64,000 nucleotides of DNA from Escherichia phage vB_EcoM_CRJP21: sequence record OQ708376.1, one strand, 5' to 3'. This document shows positions 15,881 to 60,246 of this stretch, piece after piece (position 1 is the first letter of the stretch; the number at the start of each line of letters is the position of its first letter). A program made the translations under genes and the position numbers. The notes under the pieces were generated by a model. It did not search any database and was not told where the DNA came from. It saw only the letters and a list, made by a program, of their open reading frames with translations.

Positions 15881-16300
15881 ATGAAAAAGATTTTTTTAAG
15901 TATTATTTTAGTACTTTTTAGTTTTAATGTATATGCAGCAGATGCTAAACAGGTTGCAAATACAGTAAAAGATGTTATAGTAGATAATGCTCCTACATTA
16001 GAGGAAATTGGGGTAAAAACTTGTGATATAGTAATATATAATTTAGTTAATGATGAACGAGTTATGTTGAATACGTATGAACAAGTAGTCCCATTGGTTG
16101 AATCTGGTGATGCTTTTAGCTTTACATATAAAGTTAAATTAACAGGAGGGGTTGAAGTTAATCTTGACATTGATACCGCTTCAGTACTAAAAGATAAACT
16201 AGGATATGTGTTCAATCGTATTCGTGAAGAAGGTCATCTTAAGTATGTTTATGAAAGTAAAATACTAAAACGTGCAATAGTTATAGAAAACTGTAAATGA
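15881..16300 (+). CDS. secreted protein (signal peptide)
   Basis: N-terminus MKKIFLSIILVLFSFNVYAADA. Confidence 0.55.
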   Translation: MKKIFLSIILVLFSFNVYAADAKQVANTVKDVIVDNAPTLEEIGVKTCDIVIYNLVNDERVMLNTYEQVVPLVESGDAFSFTYKVKLTGGVEVNLDIDTASVLKDKLGYVFNRIREEGHLKYVYESKILKRAIVIENCK

Positions 16301-16307
16301 TAATAAA

Positions 16308-16340
16308 AGGGTTGACTTCGGTCAGCCTTTTTTGTTATGA
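16308..16340 (+). terminator. bifunctional terminator/promoter element
   Basis: GGGTTGAC-TTCG-GTCAGCC + T6. Confidence 0.7.
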
Positions 16341-16369
16341 TGTTGATATTAACTACAGAGGATAAAGTA

Positions 16370-17011
16370 ATGACTAAGCAAGAAATATTCAAAACTTTAA
16401 TTGACATTTTGCGTCCATCAAAAACTCGTTGTGCGATGGAGTTTGATATTCCTTATGCTGAACGCGTAATCTTTCCACAAGTTAAAGCTGCTGGACTTAC
16501 TTTGCTTGGAATGGGGATGTACTCTGTAGTAGTTGAACATAAAAACTATCCTGGACGAGCATTTAAAGTAACCACTTCACGCTGGGATGGTTTTCGTGCT
16601 TATGCAAAGTACTGCATTGAAAACGCAGGAACCAAGTTTCTTCCAGTGATCTACAGTGCCAACGAACAAGGAAACTTTGGATGGTATGAGATGGACAAGT
16701 ACTATCCTATAATTAAACAAAAAAATAATTATGATGACTTTGTTAGTACTAAAATTGGAGATTTGTATTCGTATGCACATGCTGGTCAGTACGCAACTTC
16801 AGTGAATGATATGCGTGGAAATTCTGAAGAGATTGCTATTGCAACGGTCGCTGCTAACATCATGAAAGAGTTTCACGGGCGTTTTGTACCAGACATTCAT
16901 TCAAGTAATGTGATGATGGATAAAGATGGGAATGTATTCATTACTGATCCTCTTTCGTGTGATGTGCGTAGAGAAATACCAATTACTGAAGAAGATCCAG
17001 TTTTTTATTGA
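16370..17011 (+). CDS. hypothetical protein with possible kinase/phosphotransferase-like motif (DIHSSNVMMDKDGNVFITD)
   Basis: ORF track 16337-17011; ATG 16370 after GAGGA; motif-level resemblance only. Confidence 0.5.
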   Translation: MTKQEIFKTLIDILRPSKTRCAMEFDIPYAERVIFPQVKAAGLTLLGMGMYSVVVEHKNYPGRAFKVTTSRWDGFRAYAKYCIENAGTKFLPVIYSANEQGNFGWYEMDKYYPIIKQKNNYDDFVSTKIGDLYSYAHAGQYATSVNDMRGNSEEIAIATVAANIMKEFHGRFVPDIHSSNVMMDKDGNVFITDPLSCDVRREIPITEEDPVFY

Positions 17012-17072
17012 CAGAACTGATGTTCTGATGTATTCTTAATAAACCATAAAAATTGCGGTAAAGGATAAAATC

Positions 17073-17354
17073 ATGCGTTCATTTGAAAACTTAATAGGTA
17101 AGCATCTTTTATCTGAAATTGATGCAGACGTTAAAGAATTATCCAAATCAAAAAGTTACATTCATTTGGATGAACTGTTTGTTAAGTACGGTGAGATTGG
17201 TTTTAAGTCATTATTTGTTTTTACTATGAAAGTACATAGTTTAAAGTACTTCGATTTGAGTGCTAAAGATGGTGAACCGAATCTATATTACATGTATTAC
17301 CTTAAGAACAAAGATGAAGCTAATACATTACTCTCTGAATATATATTGGGGTAA
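17073..17354 (+). CDS. hypothetical protein (93 aa)
   Basis: AGGA RBS. Confidence 0.5.
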   Translation: MRSFENLIGKHLLSEIDADVKELSKSKSYIHLDELFVKYGEIGFKSLFVFTMKVHSLKYFDLSAKDGEPNLYYMYYLKNKDEANTLLSEYILG

Positions 17355-17356
17355 AA

Positions 17357-17695
17357 ATGGAACAATATTTTGAATTAATAAACAAAGTATCATTTTATGT
17401 AGTATCTTTGGTTTGGGTGTATTATATGTTTTGCTATATTATTGCATTCTTCCGATACACTACTTTATATGAACGTATCTACTATGATGCCCCAATTTCA
17501 TTCTTGATGTTTTGTGCCTGTACGTGGGGAATATTAGAAGTACTGATATGTGGGTATAGTACTGATGAATTAAATCTGGTATCGGTGTTGACTGGGTTTT
17601 CATTTGTTGTTATGATAGCTGCCGTTCCAGTATGGTTGTTCTTTGGACTAGTTCATCGCATTGATATATGGCGTTCTAATATCCCTGAAAAGTAA
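17357..17695 (+). CDS. small membrane protein, paralog family member (array A, 1 of 3)
   Basis: hydrophobic helices; C-terminal R-x-N-[ILM]-P-[EN]-[KRE] tail shared with 10 other ORFs. Confidence 0.55.
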   Translation: MEQYFELINKVSFYVVSLVWVYYMFCYIIAFFRYTTLYERIYYDAPISFLMFCACTWGILEVLICGYSTDELNLVSVLTGFSFVVMIAAVPVWLFFGLVHRIDIWRSNIPEK

Positions 17696-17704
17696 GGATT
17701 GGTA

Positions 17705-18046
17705 ATGATTTATTACACTAACATGTTTGCCTATGCTGTTGCTTGCATTTACATTGTTTACTTCTTATTCGGTGGAGTACTGTGCTTCTTTAAGTACAAA
17801 ACGTTGTTCAACCGAATGTACCCAAATCATCCAATTGTAGTTGTACTTTTGATTCTTTCAGTTTCTCAAATAATCGTTGAAACTACAATGGGTATCAGTA
17901 GTGTACATTATAGTTTTGGTACTATAGTAATTATTACTATGCTTATTGCATACATTTTAGTACTTGGATATGGTATCTTTGGTAATATTGGTATGAAAAT
18001 GTATCATCGAATTAAAACATTACGTGATAATCTACCGGAGCGTTGA
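17705..18046 (+). CDS. small membrane protein, paralog family member (array A, 2 of 3)
   Basis: ATG 17705 after AAGGA; C-terminal tail RDNLPER. Confidence 0.55.
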   Translation: MIYYTNMFAYAVACIYIVYFLFGGVLCFFKYKTLFNRMYPNHPIVVVLLILSVSQIIVETTMGISSVHYSFGTIVIITMLIAYILVLGYGIFGNIGMKMYHRIKTLRDNLPER

Positions 18047-18047
18047 T

Positions 18048-18392
18048 ATGTATAATTTGAACCTAATCTCATATATTATAACAACACTGTTTACATTCTA
18101 TGCCTTTGTTGGTATAATCCTACTGTACTTTAAATTTTATAAAGTGTTTAACCGTTTCTATCCTTCAATGGAGAATGAGTTTTTCTTTGTGTTGTACGTA
18201 GGTTACACATTAATGGCTACATGTTTCACTGTAGCCGATGGTGTCATCGGCATTAAAACTGATTCCCCAAATGGTAGTACGCTGGTTGCATTTATTCTTA
18301 CTGGATTCCTTGCAACTTATATTGCCTTCATTACAACATGGTCAGTGGTTGAATTTCTCTTGCGACTACGAAAGAATATGCCGAATCGATAG
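18048..18392 (+). CDS. small membrane protein, paralog family member (array A, 3 of 3)
   Basis: ATG 18048 after GGAG; C-terminal tail RKNMPNR. Confidence 0.55.
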   Translation: MYNLNLISYIITTLFTFYAFVGIILLYFKFYKVFNRFYPSMENEFFFVLYVGYTLMATCFTVADGVIGIKTDSPNGSTLVAFILTGFLATYIAFITTWSVVEFLLRLRKNMPNR

Positions 18393-18401
18393 GAGACATA
18401 T

Positions 18402-18656
18402 ATGTTTGCGTTGCGTAATAAAAACACTAAAGAATTATTATGTATTGATACCGTATGGGATTGTGCGGGGTCAACTACAGTTCTTGAAGAAGGAACTGGA
18501 TATTGCGTGTTTGTTGTACATGATAGGAATGAACTCGAATTATTACTTGCTGAGTTCAATGCTGGTGGTAATCCTAACAGTACTGAATACCCTGAGATTA
18601 TCAATCCAGCACCACCAGGCTCTTATGAAATTCTACAACTGTGGGAGTTGAAGTAA
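18402..18656 (+). CDS. hypothetical protein (84 aa)
   Basis: GGAGA RBS. Confidence 0.5.
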   Translation: MFALRNKNTKELLCIDTVWDCAGSTTVLEEGTGYCVFVVHDRNELELLLAEFNAGGNPNSTEYPEIINPAPPGSYEILQLWELK

Positions 18657-19036
18657 TGCGTCAAATGCACAAAGTAACCGAGCTAAACAAGCGTCTGGTT
18701 AAACAATCAATGTTCGAGGATAAAGAGTCTTATTATAACTTTAAACGTGCAGTAGAGGCTGCTATCCACATTCAGAAGCTTAAAGAACGTGGTTGTATTA
18801 TTCTGGAAAATGGTTCGGAAGTTGTAACGGATGACTTTAGTGTAGCGTTTGATGTTTCACCTGACGGGACGCTATCAATGCCCCGCTTAGGAACTGGAAA
18901 CATGACTGTTTGGGTTGGCTTCACTATGGGGAATGTACCTGGTACTGTGTACGTAGATGATGCAGAATTGAAAGACAGTTTCAAAAACTTATCTTATCTT
19001 GAACCACAATACGCACATGAAATGAATTTATTTTGA
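18656..19036 (+). CDS. hypothetical protein (126 aa)
   Basis: ORF track 18641-19036; ATG 18656 after GGAG. Confidence 0.5.
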   Translation: MRQMHKVTELNKRLVKQSMFEDKESYYNFKRAVEAAIHIQKLKERGCIILENGSEVVTDDFSVAFDVSPDGTLSMPRLGTGNMTVWVGFTMGNVPGTVYVDDAELKDSFKNLSYLEPQYAHEMNLF

Positions 19037-19037
19037 G

Positions 19038-19094
19038 TTGACAAACACATTCAGTACTGTATAATGCTTATCAAGGGGATGAACTTCTCATCCC
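19038..19094 (+). promoter_or_regulatory. promoter TTGACA-N17-TGTATAAT followed by 5' stem-loop GGGATGA-N-TCATCCC
   Basis: consensus hexamers; hairpin just downstream of predicted start site. Confidence 0.6.
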
Positions 19095-19112
19095 TACAAT
19101 CGAGGAACTACC

Positions 19113-19667
19113 ATGATTACTTTTAAGAAAACTGCTAACCACATCCATGAAATCTACATTAACGGTCACAAAGCTGGCCTTCTTCGTTTACTCGCCCATC
19201 ACCCTGATGCTACCGTATCTGATAATGAACCTAAAGATTGGCGTGTCTTTTTCTTTGGAAAGTACAGTGATTTTCAAGTATCAAACCTGAAGAACATTCG
19301 TTCAGTATGCACGTTAAATGAAATTAAAGAAAAGTTAGCACAAGCATTGAAAACTAATCCAGATGGTGTTCTTCCACCTGATAACTTTGTAGAGAAAGGT
19401 TATGCCTTAGCTCATTTCAAAGATGGTACTATTCAATCTATCAGTACTGAATATGAATATCATTGGACTGAGTACTTCACTTATGGTTCGAGTAATACAT
19501 TGATGGATTCACGTAGTAAATTGGAAGAAGTACTGACTCGTATGAATGAACGCGAGCGTCAGTTATATGACAAACCAGAAATGTGGAGTTCAACTTACAT
19601 TGACCGTATTGACTATGTTATTATGACTCCAATCTTTGACACTGCTTACTATGATTCTTTGAAATAA
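19113..19667 (+). CDS. hypothetical protein (184 aa)
   Basis: GAGGAACT RBS. Confidence 0.55.
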   Translation: MITFKKTANHIHEIYINGHKAGLLRLLAHHPDATVSDNEPKDWRVFFFGKYSDFQVSNLKNIRSVCTLNEIKEKLAQALKTNPDGVLPPDNFVEKGYALAHFKDGTIQSISTEYEYHWTEYFTYGSSNTLMDSRSKLEEVLTRMNERERQLYDKPEMWSSTYIDRIDYVIMTPIFDTAYYDSLK

Positions 19668-19679
19668 GGATAACTTATA

Positions 19680-19856
19680 TGAAACTACGTACTCGTAATC
19701 GACTGATGGATGCACTGTACCATGAACAGCTTTCACTGAATGAAGTGAAGCGTCAGTTAATGTACACATATCAGTTTCCCGCTCGCATTGCAAAACAACG
19801 TGCTAAAGAATTGCTGAAAGAAGCAATCGAGTACTGGGAATCTGATTCGTACTAAT
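19680..19856 (+). CDS. hypothetical basic protein (58 aa)
   Basis: AAGGA N8 ATG; below ORF-track cutoff. Confidence 0.4.
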
Positions 19857-19894
19857 ATTACGTGATATGTCACGTTAATTAAGTGAGGCGATAA

Positions 19895-20146
19895 ATGAAA
19901 ATATTATTAGTTCTAATACTACTAATAGTTTTACCATTTACTTTAGTATCCCCTGGACTTGCATGGAATGTATTTGTGTACTTAGTATGTACTATTGTAG
20001 TAAATGGTATCTTGTTCTTAGTTCTATTCATAAATGGAATAGGACACGGTGGAGGATGGACCAGTACTGCTGATATTGTACATAAAACCACTATGTCTTT
20101 ATTTGTAATGTGGAATTTATTCTGGACTTGGTTTGTGTTCTTCTAA
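19895..20146 (+). CDS. small membrane protein (83 aa)
   Basis: GAGG RBS; hydrophobic helices. Confidence 0.5.
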   Translation: MKILLVLILLIVLPFTLVSPGLAWNVFVYLVCTIVVNGILFLVLFINGIGHGGGWTSTADIVHKTTMSLFVMWNLFWTWFVFF

Positions 20147-20154
20147 TTAAAAAT

Positions 20155-20526
20155 ATGAATATAGATTTGAAAGGTGCAACACGAACTGTTATCCTCGTTG
20201 GGGAATATGCTATCAAGATTCCAACCTTTAAAAGTTGGAAGCTATTCTTAACAGGGATGATAGCTAACCTCAATGAACGTTCGTGGATGCAGTACTCCAA
20301 TCGTAGTGATAGTAGTATCTGTCCTACGTTGTGGTCATCATGTACTGGACTAGTAACTGTACAGAAACGTTGTAAGCCAGTTCAACATAGGGGTTTATTT
20401 TGGGTGGAGTTGTGTGCTTTAGCATTGAATTCAGAGTTAAGTACTGACTTCTTCTATTCAGATGCGAAGCCAGAAAACTTTGGGTATCTGGGTGGTAAGT
20501 TAGTTAAACTTGATTATGGAGATTAA
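20155..20526 (+). CDS. small protein with protein-kinase-like catalytic motifs (AIK, D-x-KPEN, DYG)
   Basis: ORF track 20110-20526; motifs EYAIKIP, SDAKPENFGY, VKLDYGD; motif-level only. Confidence 0.4.
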   Translation: MNIDLKGATRTVILVGEYAIKIPTFKSWKLFLTGMIANLNERSWMQYSNRSDSSICPTLWSSCTGLVTVQKRCKPVQHRGLFWVELCALALNSELSTDFFYSDAKPENFGYLGGKLVKLDYGD

Positions 20527-20527
20527 T

Positions 20528-20797
20528 ATGTACGCACTGTATAATAAAGAAAAGAAACGATTTGCTAAGGTTGAAATTTCGATTGATACATTTGATATGT
20601 TGGAGTACTGTATTGTAACTGACCTATATGCTAACTTGTATTACGTTCTTGATGACGTATCAGTACTGCAACGATTGCTTGAGAATTCCAAAAGTCAATG
20701 CCAGGGCATCCATGATGGTTCATCTTATGAAACACCTGAGTGTTCCTACGGCTATCTGGACGGGTATGAGATTGTGAAGTTGGGGATCATTGAATAA
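20528..20797 (+). CDS. hypothetical protein (89 aa)
   Basis: ATG 20528 after GGAG. Confidence 0.45.
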   Translation: MYALYNKEKKRFAKVEISIDTFDMLEYCIVTDLYANLYYVLDDVSVLQRLLENSKSQCQGIHDGSSYETPECSYGYLDGYEIVKLGIIE

Positions 20798-20802
20798 AGA
20801 AA

Positions 20803-20836
20803 AGGGTTGACTTCGGTCAGCCCTTTTTGCTATAAT
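20803..20836 (+). terminator. bifunctional terminator/promoter element
   Basis: GGGTTGAC-TTCG-GTCAGCCC + T5; TTGACT-N18-TATAAT. Confidence 0.7.
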
Positions 20837-20864: not shown

Positions 20865-21380
20865 ATGACACGCATTAACTTAGTACACGTTAAAGAACTT
20901 GCTGACCAACATCTGATGGCTGAATATCGTGAACTCCCACGTGTATTTGGTGCTGTACAAAAACACGTTCAAGCACGTAAGCGTGTACGTGATTTCAAAA
21001 TTAACAGTACTTATCTGTTAGGTTCAGGTCATGTGACATTCTTTTACGACAAGTTGCTGTACTTACAGAAGCGTCATATCGATATTGTTAACGAATGTTT
21101 GCGTCGTGGTATGAAGATTCAAAACACTGAAGTAAACGACATTAGCGGATTCCCTGCTGAGTTTTGTAATGACTACGTACCATCGGAGTCAGAGATTAAA
21201 ATGTCTCGTGACCGTTTGATTGAGAAGCTCCAGATGAAGCCTACGTGGTATAAGTTTACTGATGTTGAATGTCCACAGTACGTTAAAGATATGCAGAACG
21301 TAAGTAGTAAGAACGAATCTAGTACTGATATGTTCGACGAAATTGAAGAACAAATCAAAGATGAAATGAATAATTATTAA
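20865..21380 (+). CDS. denV: pyrimidine dimer DNA glycosylase (T4 endonuclease V homolog) with C-terminal extension
   Basis: N-terminus [34 protein letters not shown]...[10 protein letters not shown]...PTWYK closely matches T4 DenV as I recall it; AGAGGAT RBS. Confidence 0.85.
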
Positions 21381-21719: not shown

Positions 21720-22079
21720 ATGGCATCTTTAAGTGAAATCGCAGAATACAACCCACTAACAATCTCAACAATTCAACGTACAAAAACTTTTTATTTCCGT
21801 CCTTCTGATGGATGGAAACGTGGAATGAATGGTGACTATCGAGTACTGGAAGATTCACTAATCGAGCGTATCAACTCTGAACTACAGAAGTATGAAGGTG
21901 TTAAAGTTGTGCGTTCAACTTCTCGTTATTTTGAGTACTACATTGAGTCTTCAACTGTAAATGAAAACTCATCATTCTCGGTGGACAACACTGATATTCT
22001 TCGTAATGCAGTTGGTCTGTTATGCAACATTGCAGAAGAAATGGGCTTAACTATTACTACTATGAGTGAATTAGAATAA
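21720..22079 (+). CDS. hypothetical protein (119 aa)
   Basis: GAGGAAT RBS. Confidence 0.55.
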   Translation: MASLSEIAEYNPLTISTIQRTKTFYFRPSDGWKRGMNGDYRVLEDSLIERINSELQKYEGVKVVRSTSRYFEYYIESSTVNENSSFSVDNTDILRNAVGLLCNIAEEMGLTITTMSELE

Positions 22080-22083
22080 CATA

Positions 22084-22118
22084 AAGGGTTGACTTCGGTC
22101 AGCCCTTTTTGCTATAAT
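22084..22118 (+). terminator. bifunctional terminator/promoter element
   Basis: GGGTTGAC-TTCG-GTCAGCCC + T5; TATAAT downstream. Confidence 0.7.
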
Positions 22119-22144
22119 ACTTTCATCAACAGAAGAGGTAACAC

Positions 22145-22375
22145 ATGAAACTATCTTTTATACGATTGGCTGAATTCTTTGGTACTGATGTAATTACTCT
22201 ACAACAAATAGCAGATAATACATCATTAACTACGCAAGAAGTACTTGACTTAGATGTAATTCAGTGCAATAATACTTCAATCGATTACAAAGAAGGTCTT
22301 GTCGAAAAAGATAAGATTCAGGCTAAGATTAATGGTGCTGGACGGGTTCAGTACTGGAAAGCTATATTAAGTTGA
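22145..22375 (+). CDS. hypothetical protein (76 aa)
   Basis: AGAGG RBS. Confidence 0.5.
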   Translation: MKLSFIRLAEFFGTDVITLQQIADNTSLTTQEVLDLDVIQCNNTSIDYKEGLVEKDKIQAKINGAGRVQYWKAILS

Positions 22376-22390
22376 ATTGGAGATTTGTAT

Positions 22391-24034
22391 ATGATTGGAA
22401 GTTTTTGTTTTATTGACAAAAAAAAACGTTCAAAACCTTATATTATTGCTGAAAAGGTAAGAAATATATTTTCTAATATAAAAGAAATAAATTGTGACTT
22501 TATTGGTTTTGATATTAACTCAATACTTGAATGGGAAGGGGAAAAAACATATATTTTATATGAAATAAATGGTATAACAAAAAAGATTAGATATGATATT
22601 CTAAGACAACATTCTAATAATGGTTCTTTTCCGAATAAAAAACATTTTAATTCTGAAGAATTAAAAAAATGTAGTAAAGAAAAAAAAATATTTGATTATG
22701 ATAAGTCAATGAGATTGTCATCTTATTATTCAACACCAAATATAATAACGGTTGGTGATAAAGATATATCATATTTTACTGCTCTTCAGTTAGAAGCTAT
22801 ATCTCCATATATGCATTTTAACTCTATCACACCCACTGAATATTCGAAAAAAATATTGAATAAGATAAAAGAGTTTAAAAATGTTGAAGTTATTTTTTAT
22901 GGATTTTATGTATCATACTATTCAGAATGGAATAACAAAAAAACAAAAATAGTAATATCTTTTAATGAATATGTTACCTATCATATGACAATTGATGATT
23001 TTTTATATAGTTTAGATAGTAATATAACAGATATTCCTCGTTTTAATTATAATAATGAAAATTTTATTTATCGTATGATGTTTTTTGGATATGCTAATAA
23101 TCATACTTTTGATTTATCAAATTTAAACATTAAAAATTCCAAATCAATAATTAGAAAAAAATGTAAAGTATGTAAAAGTACTGATGTAGTGAGTATTGCA
23201 CAACATATTAGGAATCCTAGTTGCTCTGTATGTTTTTATAATACTGAAAAATTTAATTATAATGAATATGAAGCATGTGAAGAAGTTGTTAATGAGTATA
23301 AGGGATTTCATTATATGAATCATGATAATATAAAATTCATTCCAATTGGATGTTCTTACACACCATTTGAATGGTATGAAATAATAAAATATAAGGGTGG
23401 TGATTCTTTTATTGGTTTTTATATTAACAGTTCTTCAGAGTTTGACGGTAATAAGACGAAAATTTTATTAGATATTAATGGGGTAATATTAACTCCAACA
23501 ATTCTCAATTTTCTTGAGAGATACGAAAATATGTATAAAGACCTAATAAATCCAACAATATCTTTGGAAATTATGTCTAATAATAAATACAAACCCTCGG
23601 TTGCACGTCACAAAAGAATCTTTAGTCAACCTATTTTAACATTAGGAGGGATTATTTCATCAAATGATTTATCATCATATGAAATGATAGTCGCATTGTT
23701 CCTAATCAAAAATAATATTGATTTTCATTTTCAATTCAGAACTGAAGAATCAATAGAATTTATGGGAAATAGAAGATATGATTTTTATGTACCAGATTAT
23801 AATCTAATCATTGAAGTTGATGGTGCACAGCATACAAACTATTGCCCAATATTTCATAGAAGTGAAGAGTGCTTACAAAAACAAATGGAAATTGATGAAA
23901 TAAAACTTGAATTTGCAAAAGAATCAGGATATAATTTTGCTCGCATTAACTATGATGAATCTATTGTTGATGAACTTATTAATGTGATTAAAAAAATATC
24001 ATCTGAAAATAATCAGATTATTAGAACTTATTAA
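22391..24034 (+). CDS. Asn/Lys-rich protein with C-terminal PD-(D/E)xK-like nuclease motif
   Basis: ORF track 22385-24034; C-terminal RRYDFYVPDYNLIIEVDGAQH resembles Vsr/DUF559-type fold; motif-level only. Confidence 0.45.
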   Translation: MIGSFCFIDKKKRSKPYIIAEKVRNIFSNIKEINCDFIGFDINSILEWEGEKTYILYEINGITKKIRYDILRQHSNNGSFPNKKHFNSEELKKCSKEKKIFDYDKSMRLSSYYSTPNIITVGDKDISYFTALQLEAISPYMHFNSITPTEYSKKILNKIKEFKNVEVIFYGFYVSYYSEWNNKKTKIVISFNEYVTYHMTIDDFLYSLDSNITDIPRFNYNNENFIYRMMFFGYANNHTFDLSNLNIKNSKSIIRKKCKVCKSTDVVSIAQHIRNPSCSVCFYNTEKFNYNEYEACEEVVNEYKGFHYMNHDNIKFIPIGCSYTPFEWYEIIKYKGGDSFIGFYINSSSEFDGNKTKILLDINGVILTPTILNFLERYENMYKDLINPTISLEIMSNNKYKPSVARHKRIFSQPILTLGGIISSNDLSSYEMIVALFLIKNNIDFHFQFRTEESIEFMGNRRYDFYVPDYNLIIEVDGAQHTNYCPIFHRSEECLQKQMEIDEIKLEFAKESGYNFARINYDESIVDELINVIKKISSENNQIIRTY

Positions 24035-59387: not shown

Positions 59388-59630
59388 ATGATTACTTTAG
59401 AAAAACGTATCAAAGAAACTACATCGCTGGTGGAACTGTTAACAGTACTGAAATGCCGTACTACTCGGTTTAGTACACCGGACTTTATTAATATGGTTGA
59501 TGTTAATGGTCGCTATCGTATCACGGTCGAACAAGGAGCGGCGAAAGTATTCAGTACTAAAAACACTAAGGAAGTGATTCACGCTGTAAGTGTTAAAAAA
59601 GTAGTTGCCATTGATAGTAAAGTACTGTAA
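59388..59630 (+). CDS. hypothetical protein (80 aa)
   Basis: preceded by near-duplicate of the 59055-59110 intergenic. Confidence 0.5.
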   Translation: MITLEKRIKETTSLVELLTVLKCRTTRFSTPDFINMVDVNGRYRITVEQGAAKVFSTKNTKEVIHAVSVKKVVAIDSKVL

Positions 59631-59661
59631 GATAGTTTCATTAACTCAAGGAGAACATGCA

Positions 59662-60246
59662 ATGCGTAATTATACTAAATTCATCCGTACCCTGTCAGAA
59701 ATGGAAACCAACAAAGAGATCCTTTCAGCTTGTCGGTTAGCTGGTCTGGAGATCATCGGTGCGGGTTCTTCCCGTATTGTATTCGCTTTAAATGATCGGT
59801 TAGTGATTAAGGTCGCGAATTGTGATGCGGGTGTAGAACAAAATGAAACTGAATGTAAGGTATGGAATTTTTTAGATTATGACCGCCCTCAATTGAAACA
59901 GTACTTTGCAAAGGTGCATATGCATTTATGCGATCCTGATAATATGTTTATCGTTATGGATCGGTTGAGTACTGCAAGTAAAGGCAGTGTAAAGCACGTA
60001 AACGCGTGCAATGAATTAAAGTACAATATTAAACGTAATGCCATTGAACGCCAGCACCGCTTTGCTGATGCACTACAACACGTTGATGATACATTATCAA
60101 CACTAACGATAAGAGATATCAGAAAACAGAATATCGGCCAGGATCGTAATGGCCTTATTAAAGTACTTGATTACGGTTTAACCCGCAATATCTGGAATCA
60201 GTACTATAAAAAGCGTGATGTAGAAGCAAGTAAGGTAACACGATAA
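59662..60246 (+). CDS. small protein-kinase-like protein (G-loop GAGSSRIV, VIKV, RDIRKQN, DYG)
   Basis: ORF track 59605-60246; ATG 59662 after AAGGAG; kinase subdomain motifs in canonical order. Confidence 0.45.
   Translation: MRNYTKFIRTLSEMETNKEILSACRLAGLEIIGAGSSRIVFALNDRLVIKVANCDAGVEQNETECKVWNFLDYDRPQLKQYFAKVHMHLCDPDNMFIVMDRLSTASKGSVKHVNACNELKYNIKRNAIERQHRFADALQHVDDTLSTLTIRDIRKQNIGQDRNGLIKVLDYGLTRNIWNQYYKKRDVEASKVTR

Follow-up and report, generated by a model that had tools for sequence, protein, structure and literature searches.

Do two short open reading frames (ORFs) in the genome of Escherichia phage vB_EcoM_CRJP21 encode protein kinases, and could a chain of only 123 amino acids (aa) be one? 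The question arises from a 64,000-nucleotide stretch of this phage (sequence record OQ708376.1; hereafter the window, to which coordinates refer unless another sequence is named), in which an earlier sequence-only reading had noticed kinase-like motifs at 16370-17011 (ORF1) and 20155-20526 (ORF2). Both ORFs are real, and ORF2 emerges here as the more informative of the two, since it carries the catalytic residues of a kinase on a predicted kinase fold that ends directly after the DFG motif. A third kinase-like gene (ORF3) was recovered in addition. The three genes are as follows.

16370..17011, + strand: ORF1, 213 aa, T7 gp0.7 (T7K)-type kinase domain without the shut-off domain (by phrog, BLASTP, AlphaFold2 and Foldseek)
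20155..20526, + strand: ORF2, 123 aa, mini-kinase of phrog_4301 with Hanks subdomains I-VII (by phrog, family search, AlphaFold2 and Foldseek)
59662..60246, + strand: ORF3, 194 aa, long form of phrog_4301 (by hmmsearch, phrog, hhalign and PDB profile)

The 5 kb between positions 16000 and 21000 are 99.5% identical to vB_EcoM_G17 and Sharanji and 99.2% identical to 121Q, all jumbo myophages of the genus Asteriusvirus with genomes of 348-371 kb. ORF1 corresponds to 121Q gp205 and G17_00108, and ORF2 to 121Q gp215 and G17_00098. The first two genes had been placed in an "AT-rich half" of the window; GC content is indeed lower up to 44 kb (~0.26-0.375, versus 0.36-0.41 after), but the contrast is modest.

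ORF2 has a predicted kinase fold that ends at the DFG motif

ORF2 runs from the ATG at 20155 to the TAA at 20524-20526, shares its start Met with its homologs and is annotated as "hypothetical." It reads ...GATRTV..YAIK(21)..ANLNE(41)..SD(103)AKPEN(108)FG..KLD(120)YGD-stop, giving the motifs G7-x-T9-R10-x-V12, K21, N38-x-x-E41, D103-x-K105-P-E-N108-F-G110, and D120-Y-G122, after which there is one residue and the stop codon. The AIK, D-x-KPEN, and DYG motifs thus stand in the canonical order that had been claimed for them, and chance is not the reason, K21, E41, and D120 being invariant in 127 homologs. The canonical G-x-G-x-x-G-x-V loop is not present in ORF2, which retains G7 and V12 only and lacks the first Gly. 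Subdomains VIII-XI (activation segment/APE, alphaF Asp, alphaH-I Arg) are absent, and because the chain stops right after D-Y-G, ORF2 covers Hanks subdomains I-VII only.

An AlphaFold2 model built from a 14-sequence alignment was confident (predicted local distance difference test [pLDDT], 90.2; predicted template modeling score [pTM], 0.78), with its elements in canonical kinase order.

Residues 2-23: beta1-beta3
Residues 28-43: alphaC
Residues 58-71: beta4 and beta5
Residues 79-92: one long helix (alphaE)
Residues 97-101: short helix
Residues 109-118: beta7 and beta8

K21 falls in the predicted beta3 strand and E41 in the predicted alphaC helix. In a Foldseek search of the PDB with this model, 50 of the 50 top matches are protein kinases (probability, 0.95-1.00; query TM-score up to 0.64), the best being TTK/Mps1 (E 3.9e-4), with Lpg2603, BRAF, WbdD, and ROCK2 also among them. 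Against BFVD, uncharacterized phage proteins (117-273 aa) rank first and annotated viral Ser/Thr kinases next. We conclude from the modeled structure that ORF2 has a protein-kinase fold. A fold-level kinase match, on which the sequence-only reading had staked its case, was obtained for both ORF1 and ORF2 by structure prediction and the Foldseek top 50 in the PDB.

Nothing rose above noise when ORF1, ORF2, and ten diverse family members were scanned against Pfam-A and NCBIfam, single-sequence phmmer searches of ORF1 and ORF2 against PDB sequences gave noise only, and both proteins were unmatched in PADLOC.

The short form is widespread and conserved in phages

ORF2 belongs to phrog_4301 (E 4.2e-44), a family of unknown function that bears no functional label. 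A search of 1.84 billion cluster representatives (clusters at 50% identity) with the ORF2-family profile recovered 1,213 representatives at E<=1e-3, of which 637 reached E<=1e-10. Among the best 150 of the 1,213, nearly all members are 105-135 aa long; the 146 newly listed representatives within this best-scoring set have a median of ~123 aa, and one alone exceeds 185 aa. Most of the listed members carry (I/L/V)-D-Y-G at the C terminus or a few residues from it, with a minority having tails of up to ~40 residues.

This pattern bears on the idea that ORF2 is what remains of an ORF3-like or canonical kinase gene after decay or truncation, or else the N-terminal part of a frameshift or read-through product with the downstream gene. 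Such an origin might be suspected from a stop located one residue after DFG, from a downstream gene that begins 2 nucleotides (nt) later, and from a phrog_4301 profile that is 225 positions long. However, even at 27-35% identity, the best-scoring members of the family keep the length and the stop position, and the downstream gene is of an unrelated family, phrog_8563, has a paralog elsewhere, and is a different gene in other phages. The extra length of the profile results from the inclusion of long ORF3-type members, and strict invariance at catalytic positions points to purifying selection on the ORF2 family. We therefore consider a fragment very improbable, and truncation or a pseudogene is effectively excluded by the conserved length and stop position. 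Judging from these sequences, the ORF2 length is the native state of a large phage family and not a truncation. The description of the two proteins as "unusually short" accordingly stands in comparison with canonical kinase domains of ~250 aa but not within their families, in which each ORF has a normal length.

Conservation was counted over an alignment of 127 diverse ORF2 homologs with a mean column identity of 27%. Exactly three positions are invariant (127/127), namely the beta3 Lys (K21), the alphaC Glu (E41), and the DFG Asp (D120). The other conserved positions are listed below.

G7, R10, N38, and G110: each in 125/127 members
Position 103 (catalytic base): D in 86 and E in 40 of 127; carboxylate in 126/127
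Position 105: K in 111/127
Position 108: N in 89 and S in 37; N or S in 126/127
Y121: 115/127
G122: 114/127

The near-invariant residues also include a set outside the catalytic residues (R10, P23, F31, G34, N38, and G65).

The same counts inform a second alternative, in which ORF2 is a nucleotide-binding protein but not a protein kinase. It could be an ATPase, could phosphorylate nucleotides or other small molecules, or could, like a pseudokinase, bind or sequester ATP or a nucleotide signal of host defense systems. Nucleotide binding alone also needs the Lys-Glu-Asp triad, the substrate-binding lobe is missing, and ~30% of members have E/S in place of D/N in the catalytic loop; in addition, small phage proteins that sequester signals are common anti-defense tools, and an Acb1 gene lies ~4 kb downstream of the ORF2 homolog at one locus (L004). 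Pure binders, however, usually lose the catalytic base and the gamma-phosphate Lys, whereas here a carboxylate is kept at the former in all members but one and Lys105 in the great majority. D-x-K-P-E-N is moreover a protein Ser/Thr kinase signature, unlike the H-x-D-x4-N of aminoglycoside phosphotransferases (APH) and choline kinases, and the closest matches of ORF2 among solved structures and sequences are protein kinases. Taken together, we regard a nonkinase nucleotide binder as quite unlikely.

At the sequence level, the family profile finds TTK as its best match among PDB sequences, with the segment "vdakpenfGylngrlvkiDyg" in register with the TTK catalytic loop and DFG. Compared with canonical Ser/Thr kinases (TTK/Mps1 as the best for ORF2; MAP2K4/7, of the STE group, for ORF3), the I-VII fold, the catalytic residues, and the D-L-K-P-x-N...D-F/Y-G spacing are the same. 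ORF2 differs from these in having no activation segment, APE, alphaF-alphaI, or alphaD, in carrying Arg for the third Gly of G-x-G-x-x-G, and in being about half the size.

A minority of phrog_4301 members have been given GenBank labels such as [quoted passage not shown] "serine/threonine kinase," "protein kinase domain-containing protein," or "PRP4," while most are hypothetical. In the protein-search listing, no precomputed Pfam accession is attached to ORF2 or ORF3 homologs, and no Pfam/NCBIfam model covers them. In the full-text literature on minimal or mini-kinases, phage kinases, and kinases lacking a C-lobe, we found no publication on the phrog_4301 family; the same literature yields T7K, JSS1_004, OspG, and NleH as related kinases. 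The words "phage," "minimal," and "truncated" do not occur in the text of an oral-microbiome protein-kinase-like (PKL) preprint. The family of ORF2 and ORF3 is thus uncharacterized, with a few annotators having labeled it kinase-like.

A long-form relative connects ORF2 to eukaryotic-like kinases

ORF3 came to light when all ORFs of the window, in six frames, were searched by hmmsearch with the ORF2-family profile (59605-60243, E 2.7e-6; ATG at 59662), and it matches phrog_4301 at E 1e-41. Its layout comprises an N-terminal helical extension, G33-x-G35-S-S-R38-x-V40, K50, N61-x-x-E64, D152-x-R-K-x-N157-x-G159, D170-Y-G172, and a 22-residue tail. In a 12-member ORF3 family, G33, G35, S36, R38, V40, K50, N61, E64, D152, N157, G159, D170, and G172 are conserved. 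Profile comparison by hhalign relates the ORF3 family to the ORF2 family with a probability of 95.5% (E 1.4e-8, 116 columns), and the two share a signature consisting of Arg for the third glycine of the glycine-rich loop plus N-x-x-E in alphaC.

The ORF3-family profile also reaches MAP2K4 and MAP2K7 in the PDB, at E 1.8e-4 to 8e-4 and over nearly the whole domain. Given its link to the ORF2 family, this provides a transitive sequence tie between ORF2 and eukaryotic-like kinases, and the occasional "STE family protein kinase" labels in GenBank are explained by the ORF3-type similarity to MAP2K4/7. By these profile comparisons, ORF2 and ORF3 form a separate eukaryotic-like (STE-like) phage family, phrog_4301. 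ORF3 itself goes by "hypothetical" in G17 and Sharanji; two relatives call it "protein kinase domain-containing protein" or "PRP4." It weakly matches PD-T4-6 defense kinase models (PADLOC, E 2.4e-4), which we take to reflect a general resemblance among kinases.

ORF1 is a T7K-type kinase domain

The sequence-only reading had likened a D-I-H-x-x-N...D motif in ORF1 to kinase or phosphotransferase catalytic loops. This likeness is borne out by conservation, as G47, G49, K66, D175, H177, N180, and D193 are invariant across 20 ORF1 homologs. The gene extends from the ATG at 16370 to a stop at 17009-17011. The 121Q annotation instead starts the gene at an ATG at 16337, which falls within the -10 hexamer of the promoter-like element upstream; 16370 is most likely the start, because it is preceded by a GAGGA Shine-Dalgarno sequence and all 20 aligned homologs begin with MTK. 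The motif string is LGMGMYSVVV...AFK(66)V...D(175)IH(177)SSN(180)VM...ITD(193)P, comprising G47-x-G49, K66, D175-x-H177-x-x-N180, and the DFG equivalent D193-P. The latter reads D193-P-L, with D-P invariant in the family and D-P-V as the T7K variant.

Two PHROG families are hit by ORF1: phrog_15752 ("protein kinase; inhibitor of host transcription..."; E 1.2e-98) and, at E 9.3e-17, the T7 kinase family phrog_2828, to which T7K belongs. The BLASTP alignment of ORF1 with T7 gp0.7 (E 6e-9; 27% identity; 164 aa) is confined to T7 residues 68-216, and the motifs are in register.

Gly-loop: LGMGMYS in ORF1, LGNGHFS in T7 gp0.7
Lys strand: RAFKV in ORF1, RVIKV in T7 gp0.7
Catalytic loop: DIHSSNVM in ORF1, DMHSGNIM in T7 gp0.7
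DFG equivalent: ITDP in ORF1, ITDP in T7 gp0.7

The AlphaFold2 model of ORF1 has a pLDDT of 93.9, and 50 of its 50 top Foldseek matches in the PDB are protein kinases or aminoglycoside phosphotransferases. The T7K-like C-terminal shut-off (SO) domain is absent from ORF1, whose chain stops 20 residues after D193.

A "kinase" annotation of ORF1 is already present in 121Q and G17, and PF27024 is the precomputed Pfam accession for its homologs in the protein-search listing. The Sharanji genome paper singles out this protein (PMC11895373), and the G17 homolog is listed in Fig. 5b of the 2026 Nature paper on T7K, which states that activity and promiscuity of the jumbophage T7K clade await characterization (PMC13645617). 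From its sequence, ORF1 is best described as a homolog of the T7 gp0.7 kinase domain that was already known and from which nothing new follows.

Three kinases without the post-DFG half

T7K is a hyperactive kinase by which the phage disarms defense systems, with many host proteins among its substrates, and its kinase-only construct comprises residues 1-242 (PMC13645617). Its DFG equivalent, D-P-V, lies near residue 213. ORF1 is a true homolog of T7K (PHROG 2828, of which JSS1_004 is another homolog), with the Gly-loop, R-x-F/I-K-V, D-x-H-S-x-N-x-M, and I-T-D-P in register; T7K differs in having the C-terminal shut-off/DNA-binding domain. At the sequence level, no relation of ORF2 or ORF3 to T7K-type kinases could be detected (hhalign probability 0.9%, 0.6%, and 3.7%): T7K has D-x-H-x-x-N and D-P-x, whereas ORF2 and ORF3 have D-x-K-x-x-N and D-Y-G, and ORF2 additionally lacks the N-terminal helical extension. 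ORF1 and ORF2 as paralogs are ruled out (hhalign probability <1%).

What all three kinases of the window have in common with T7K is their architecture, the chain ending 1-26 residues after the DFG-equivalent Asp. Since ORF3 also stops 22 residues after D-Y-G, all three, like T7K, are without the post-DFG lobe. The phage therefore encodes three kinases that are missing the usual post-DFG half, i.e., Hanks subdomains VIII-XI with the activation segment, APE motif, and alphaF-alphaI.

A comparable loss is seen in the type III effector OspG, a protein of ~196 aa, which makes ORF2 roughly 40% shorter. The OspG and NleH kinase domains lack Hanks subdomains VIII-XI and are catalytically active, with OspG autophosphorylating and phosphorylating CAND1 (PMC12756638). 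OspG and NleH1-2 are likewise kinases by which an invader manipulates host signaling, but ORF2 shares only the architecture with them, that is, the loss of VIII-XI. The effectors act in eukaryotic cells, and OspG needs E2~ubiquitin. Neither OspG nor NleH is among the ORF2 profile matches in the PDB at E<=10 or in the Foldseek top 50.

Proposed function of ORF2

We lean towards the view that ORF2 is a constitutively active Ser/Thr kinase that acts on host or phage proteins as an accessory takeover or anti-defense factor. In the N-terminal part, beta1-3 would anchor ATP through Lys21, followed by alphaC with Glu41, beta4-5, and one alphaE-like helix; the C-terminal part would supply the Ser/Thr-type loop D103-A-K-P-E-N108, beta7-8, and the Mg-binding D120-Y-G, at which the chain ends. 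In the Hanks and Hunter classification, D-x-K-P-E-N is the Ser/Thr-kinase form of subdomain VIb, and for this reason ORF2 is expected to bind Mg-ATP and pass the gamma-phosphate to Ser/Thr residues. With no activation loop to control it, ORF2 may well be constitutively active, and its intrinsic substrate selectivity would be low (broad or partner-defined), because there is no P+1 or alphaG platform. The T7K and OspG/NleH precedents indicate that a core without subdomains VIII-XI can be active. ORF2 would be transcribed together with ORF1 from sigma-70-like promoters, and host takeover or defense evasion, which the sequence-only reading had brought up, would be the plausible function of all three kinases of the window.

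Several observations weigh against this view of ORF2. The glycine-rich loop is noncanonical, with one invariant Gly and an invariant Arg at the third-Gly position. The alphaF helix, normally the anchor of both hydrophobic spines, is missing, and ORF2 may therefore need a dimer or a partner for stability or activity. Around 30% of the family carry Glu for the catalytic Asp together with Ser for the Mg-binding Asn, and these E/S-type members, which include an E-x-K-x-D-S subclade, could have a different or weaker chemistry. The sequence-only match of the family to solved kinases is weak (TTK, E ~0.5), though it agrees with the structural result. Among Asteriusvirus-like phages, TH47 (MT446416.1) matches ORF2 residues 44-123 only, and SD-1_S14 (OR699183.1) residues 61-123 only. 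Finally, consensus promoter matches are the only basis for the expression timing, and the region holds no more promoter-like sites than shuffled sequences do (25 found versus a mean of 33).

The missing helix leads to a further alternative, that of a partner-dependent half-kinase whose alphaF-alphaI surface is completed by a host protein, a phage protein, or a second copy of ORF2, so that it is active only in a complex and the docking partner sets specificity. The absence of the entire post-DFG lobe fits this idea, as do the near-invariant residues outside the catalytic set noted above, and OspG offers an example of a minimal kinase that is switched on by a bound host protein, E2~ubiquitin (PMC12756638). 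On the other hand, the AlphaFold2 monomer is confident and compact, T7K-type domains function without such a lobe, and no phage-encoded neighbor is conserved across 36 loci with ORF2 homologs, meaning that any partner must be a host protein or ORF2 itself. We deem a half-kinase unlikely, yet worth keeping in mind.

Extending the constitutively active kinase proposed for ORF2 to the whole family is more tentative. ORF2-type proteins, with at least 1,200 clusters, may be autonomous, constitutively active Ser/Thr kinases of ~120 residues, with Hanks I-VII as the minimal unit, that phosphorylate host proteins for takeover or anti-defense alongside the unrelated T7K; we hold this to be possible rather than probable. 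If active, they would be, to our knowledge, the smallest protein kinases. Activity of ORF2 would mean that ~120 residues ending at DFG suffice for protein phosphorylation, with the alphaF-anchored C-lobe being needed for regulation and substrate choice rather than for chemistry, and engineers would gain a kinase scaffold of very small size. Phosphorylation of the host by phages would then extend far beyond the T7K family. What appears new is the complete catalytic set within ~120 residues ending at DFG, and this putative kinase should be of interest to both kinase structural biology and phage-host research. The family is also experimentally tractable, consisting of small proteins with homologs in cultured phages and obvious point mutants.

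Distribution and genomic neighborhoods of ORF2 homologs

ORF2 homologs were found in 117 cultured-phage records from very different lineages. Their distribution is patchy, including Asteriusvirus, a few Tequatrovirus, Vequintavirus, an N4-like phage, Aeromonas and Erwinia jumbo phages, Ralstonia phages, and Pseudomonas siphophages. All contexts examined are phage, and every metagenomic contig examined carries phage genes. The gene appears to be dispensable, because some close relatives (TH47 and SD-1_S14) carry disrupted copies, and its distribution has the pattern of a horizontally mobile accessory gene. In the Tequatrovirus Bas45, the homolog lies between the ipI locus and the tRNA cluster. 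A search for protein kinases in the BASEL collection, to which Bas45 belongs, reported only Autographiviridae homologs and Doc of P1 (PMC13645617); the mini-kinase of Bas45 thus comes in addition to the kinases reported there.

Clustering of neighbors over the 36 loci revealed no partner gene common across lineages. The sole recurrent neighbor is a pyrimidine-dimer glycosylase, seen in two phage groups. In Pseudomonas NP1-like siphophages, its gene abuts and overlaps the stop codon of the mini-kinase (locus L036, 3336-3839; also L031, L034, L035, and L038), and in the window it follows ORF2 by ~0.3 kb. As the two phage groups are unrelated, a functional or cassette link is possible, as is coincidence.

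On the metagenomic phage contig L004, which carries an ORF2 homolog, the Acb1 gene (anti-CBASS, i.e., directed against the cyclic oligonucleotide-based antiphage signaling system) occupies contig positions 10189-10674 and lies among small accessory genes.

A repeated terminator-promoter element and adjacent genes

ORF1 and ORF2 are surrounded by the following features.

16310..16341, + strand: hairpin GGTTGAC-TTCG-GTCAGCC and T-run overlapping a sigma-70-like promoter (TTGACT, 18 nt, TATGAT with TG); upstream boundary of the ORF1/ORF2 unit
20528..20797, + strand: counterpart of 121Q gp216, 89 aa, phrog_8563, starting 2 nt after the ORF2 stop
20805..20836, + strand: second copy of the hairpin and promoter (TTGACT, 18 nt, TATAAT); downstream boundary of the unit, preceding the glycosylase gene
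20865-21380, + strand: pyrimidine-dimer glycosylase gene (T4 endonuclease V type; Pfam Pyr_excise, E 5.9e-15), 3' of ORF2
10222, 13465, 13648, 15225, 16310, 20805, 22087, 24045, and 52966, + strand: copies of GGTTGACTTCGGTCAGCC

The 18-nt hairpin GGTTGACTTCGGTCAGCC occurs in nine copies in the window, all on the + strand, where 0 are expected. A T-run and a TATAAT box come next, and because the -35-like TTGACT sits in the hairpin stem, terminator and promoter are fused. A terminator is annotated in the G17 record at both of the elements that bound the unit, 16310 and 20805. These two copies flank twelve genes, from ORF1 through the gp216 counterpart, and ORF1 and ORF2 consequently lie in one block delimited by promoter and terminator.

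The GGAG Shine-Dalgarno sequence of the gp216 gene falls within the last codons of ORF2. This gene has a paralog of 84 aa at 18402-18656 (+ strand), also of phrog_8563, a family of unknown function, with weak pairwise similarity between the two. A split kinase with gp216 as its C-lobe was considered and is out, given this family assignment, the paralog, the lack of any match to kinase profiles, and the fact that gp216 is not located beside the mini-kinase in other lineages.

Between ORF1 and ORF2, at 17357-18392 (+ strand), the block contains three tandem paralogous genes for small hydrophobic proteins of 112-115 aa (121Q gp207-209). They share F-x-Y-x-T-L-F/Y-x-R-x-Y and a C-terminal R-x-N-x-P-E-K/R, and from their sequences they look like membrane proteins.

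Finally, downstream of the block, an ORF of 549 aa at 22385-24034 (+ strand) lies within a strongly AT-rich segment (GC content of 0.263 for 22001-24000, versus ~0.33-0.37 around it). Its counterpart is annotated as "endonuclease" in 121Q and as "hypothetical" in G17, and it may represent the insertion of a mobile or homing element.

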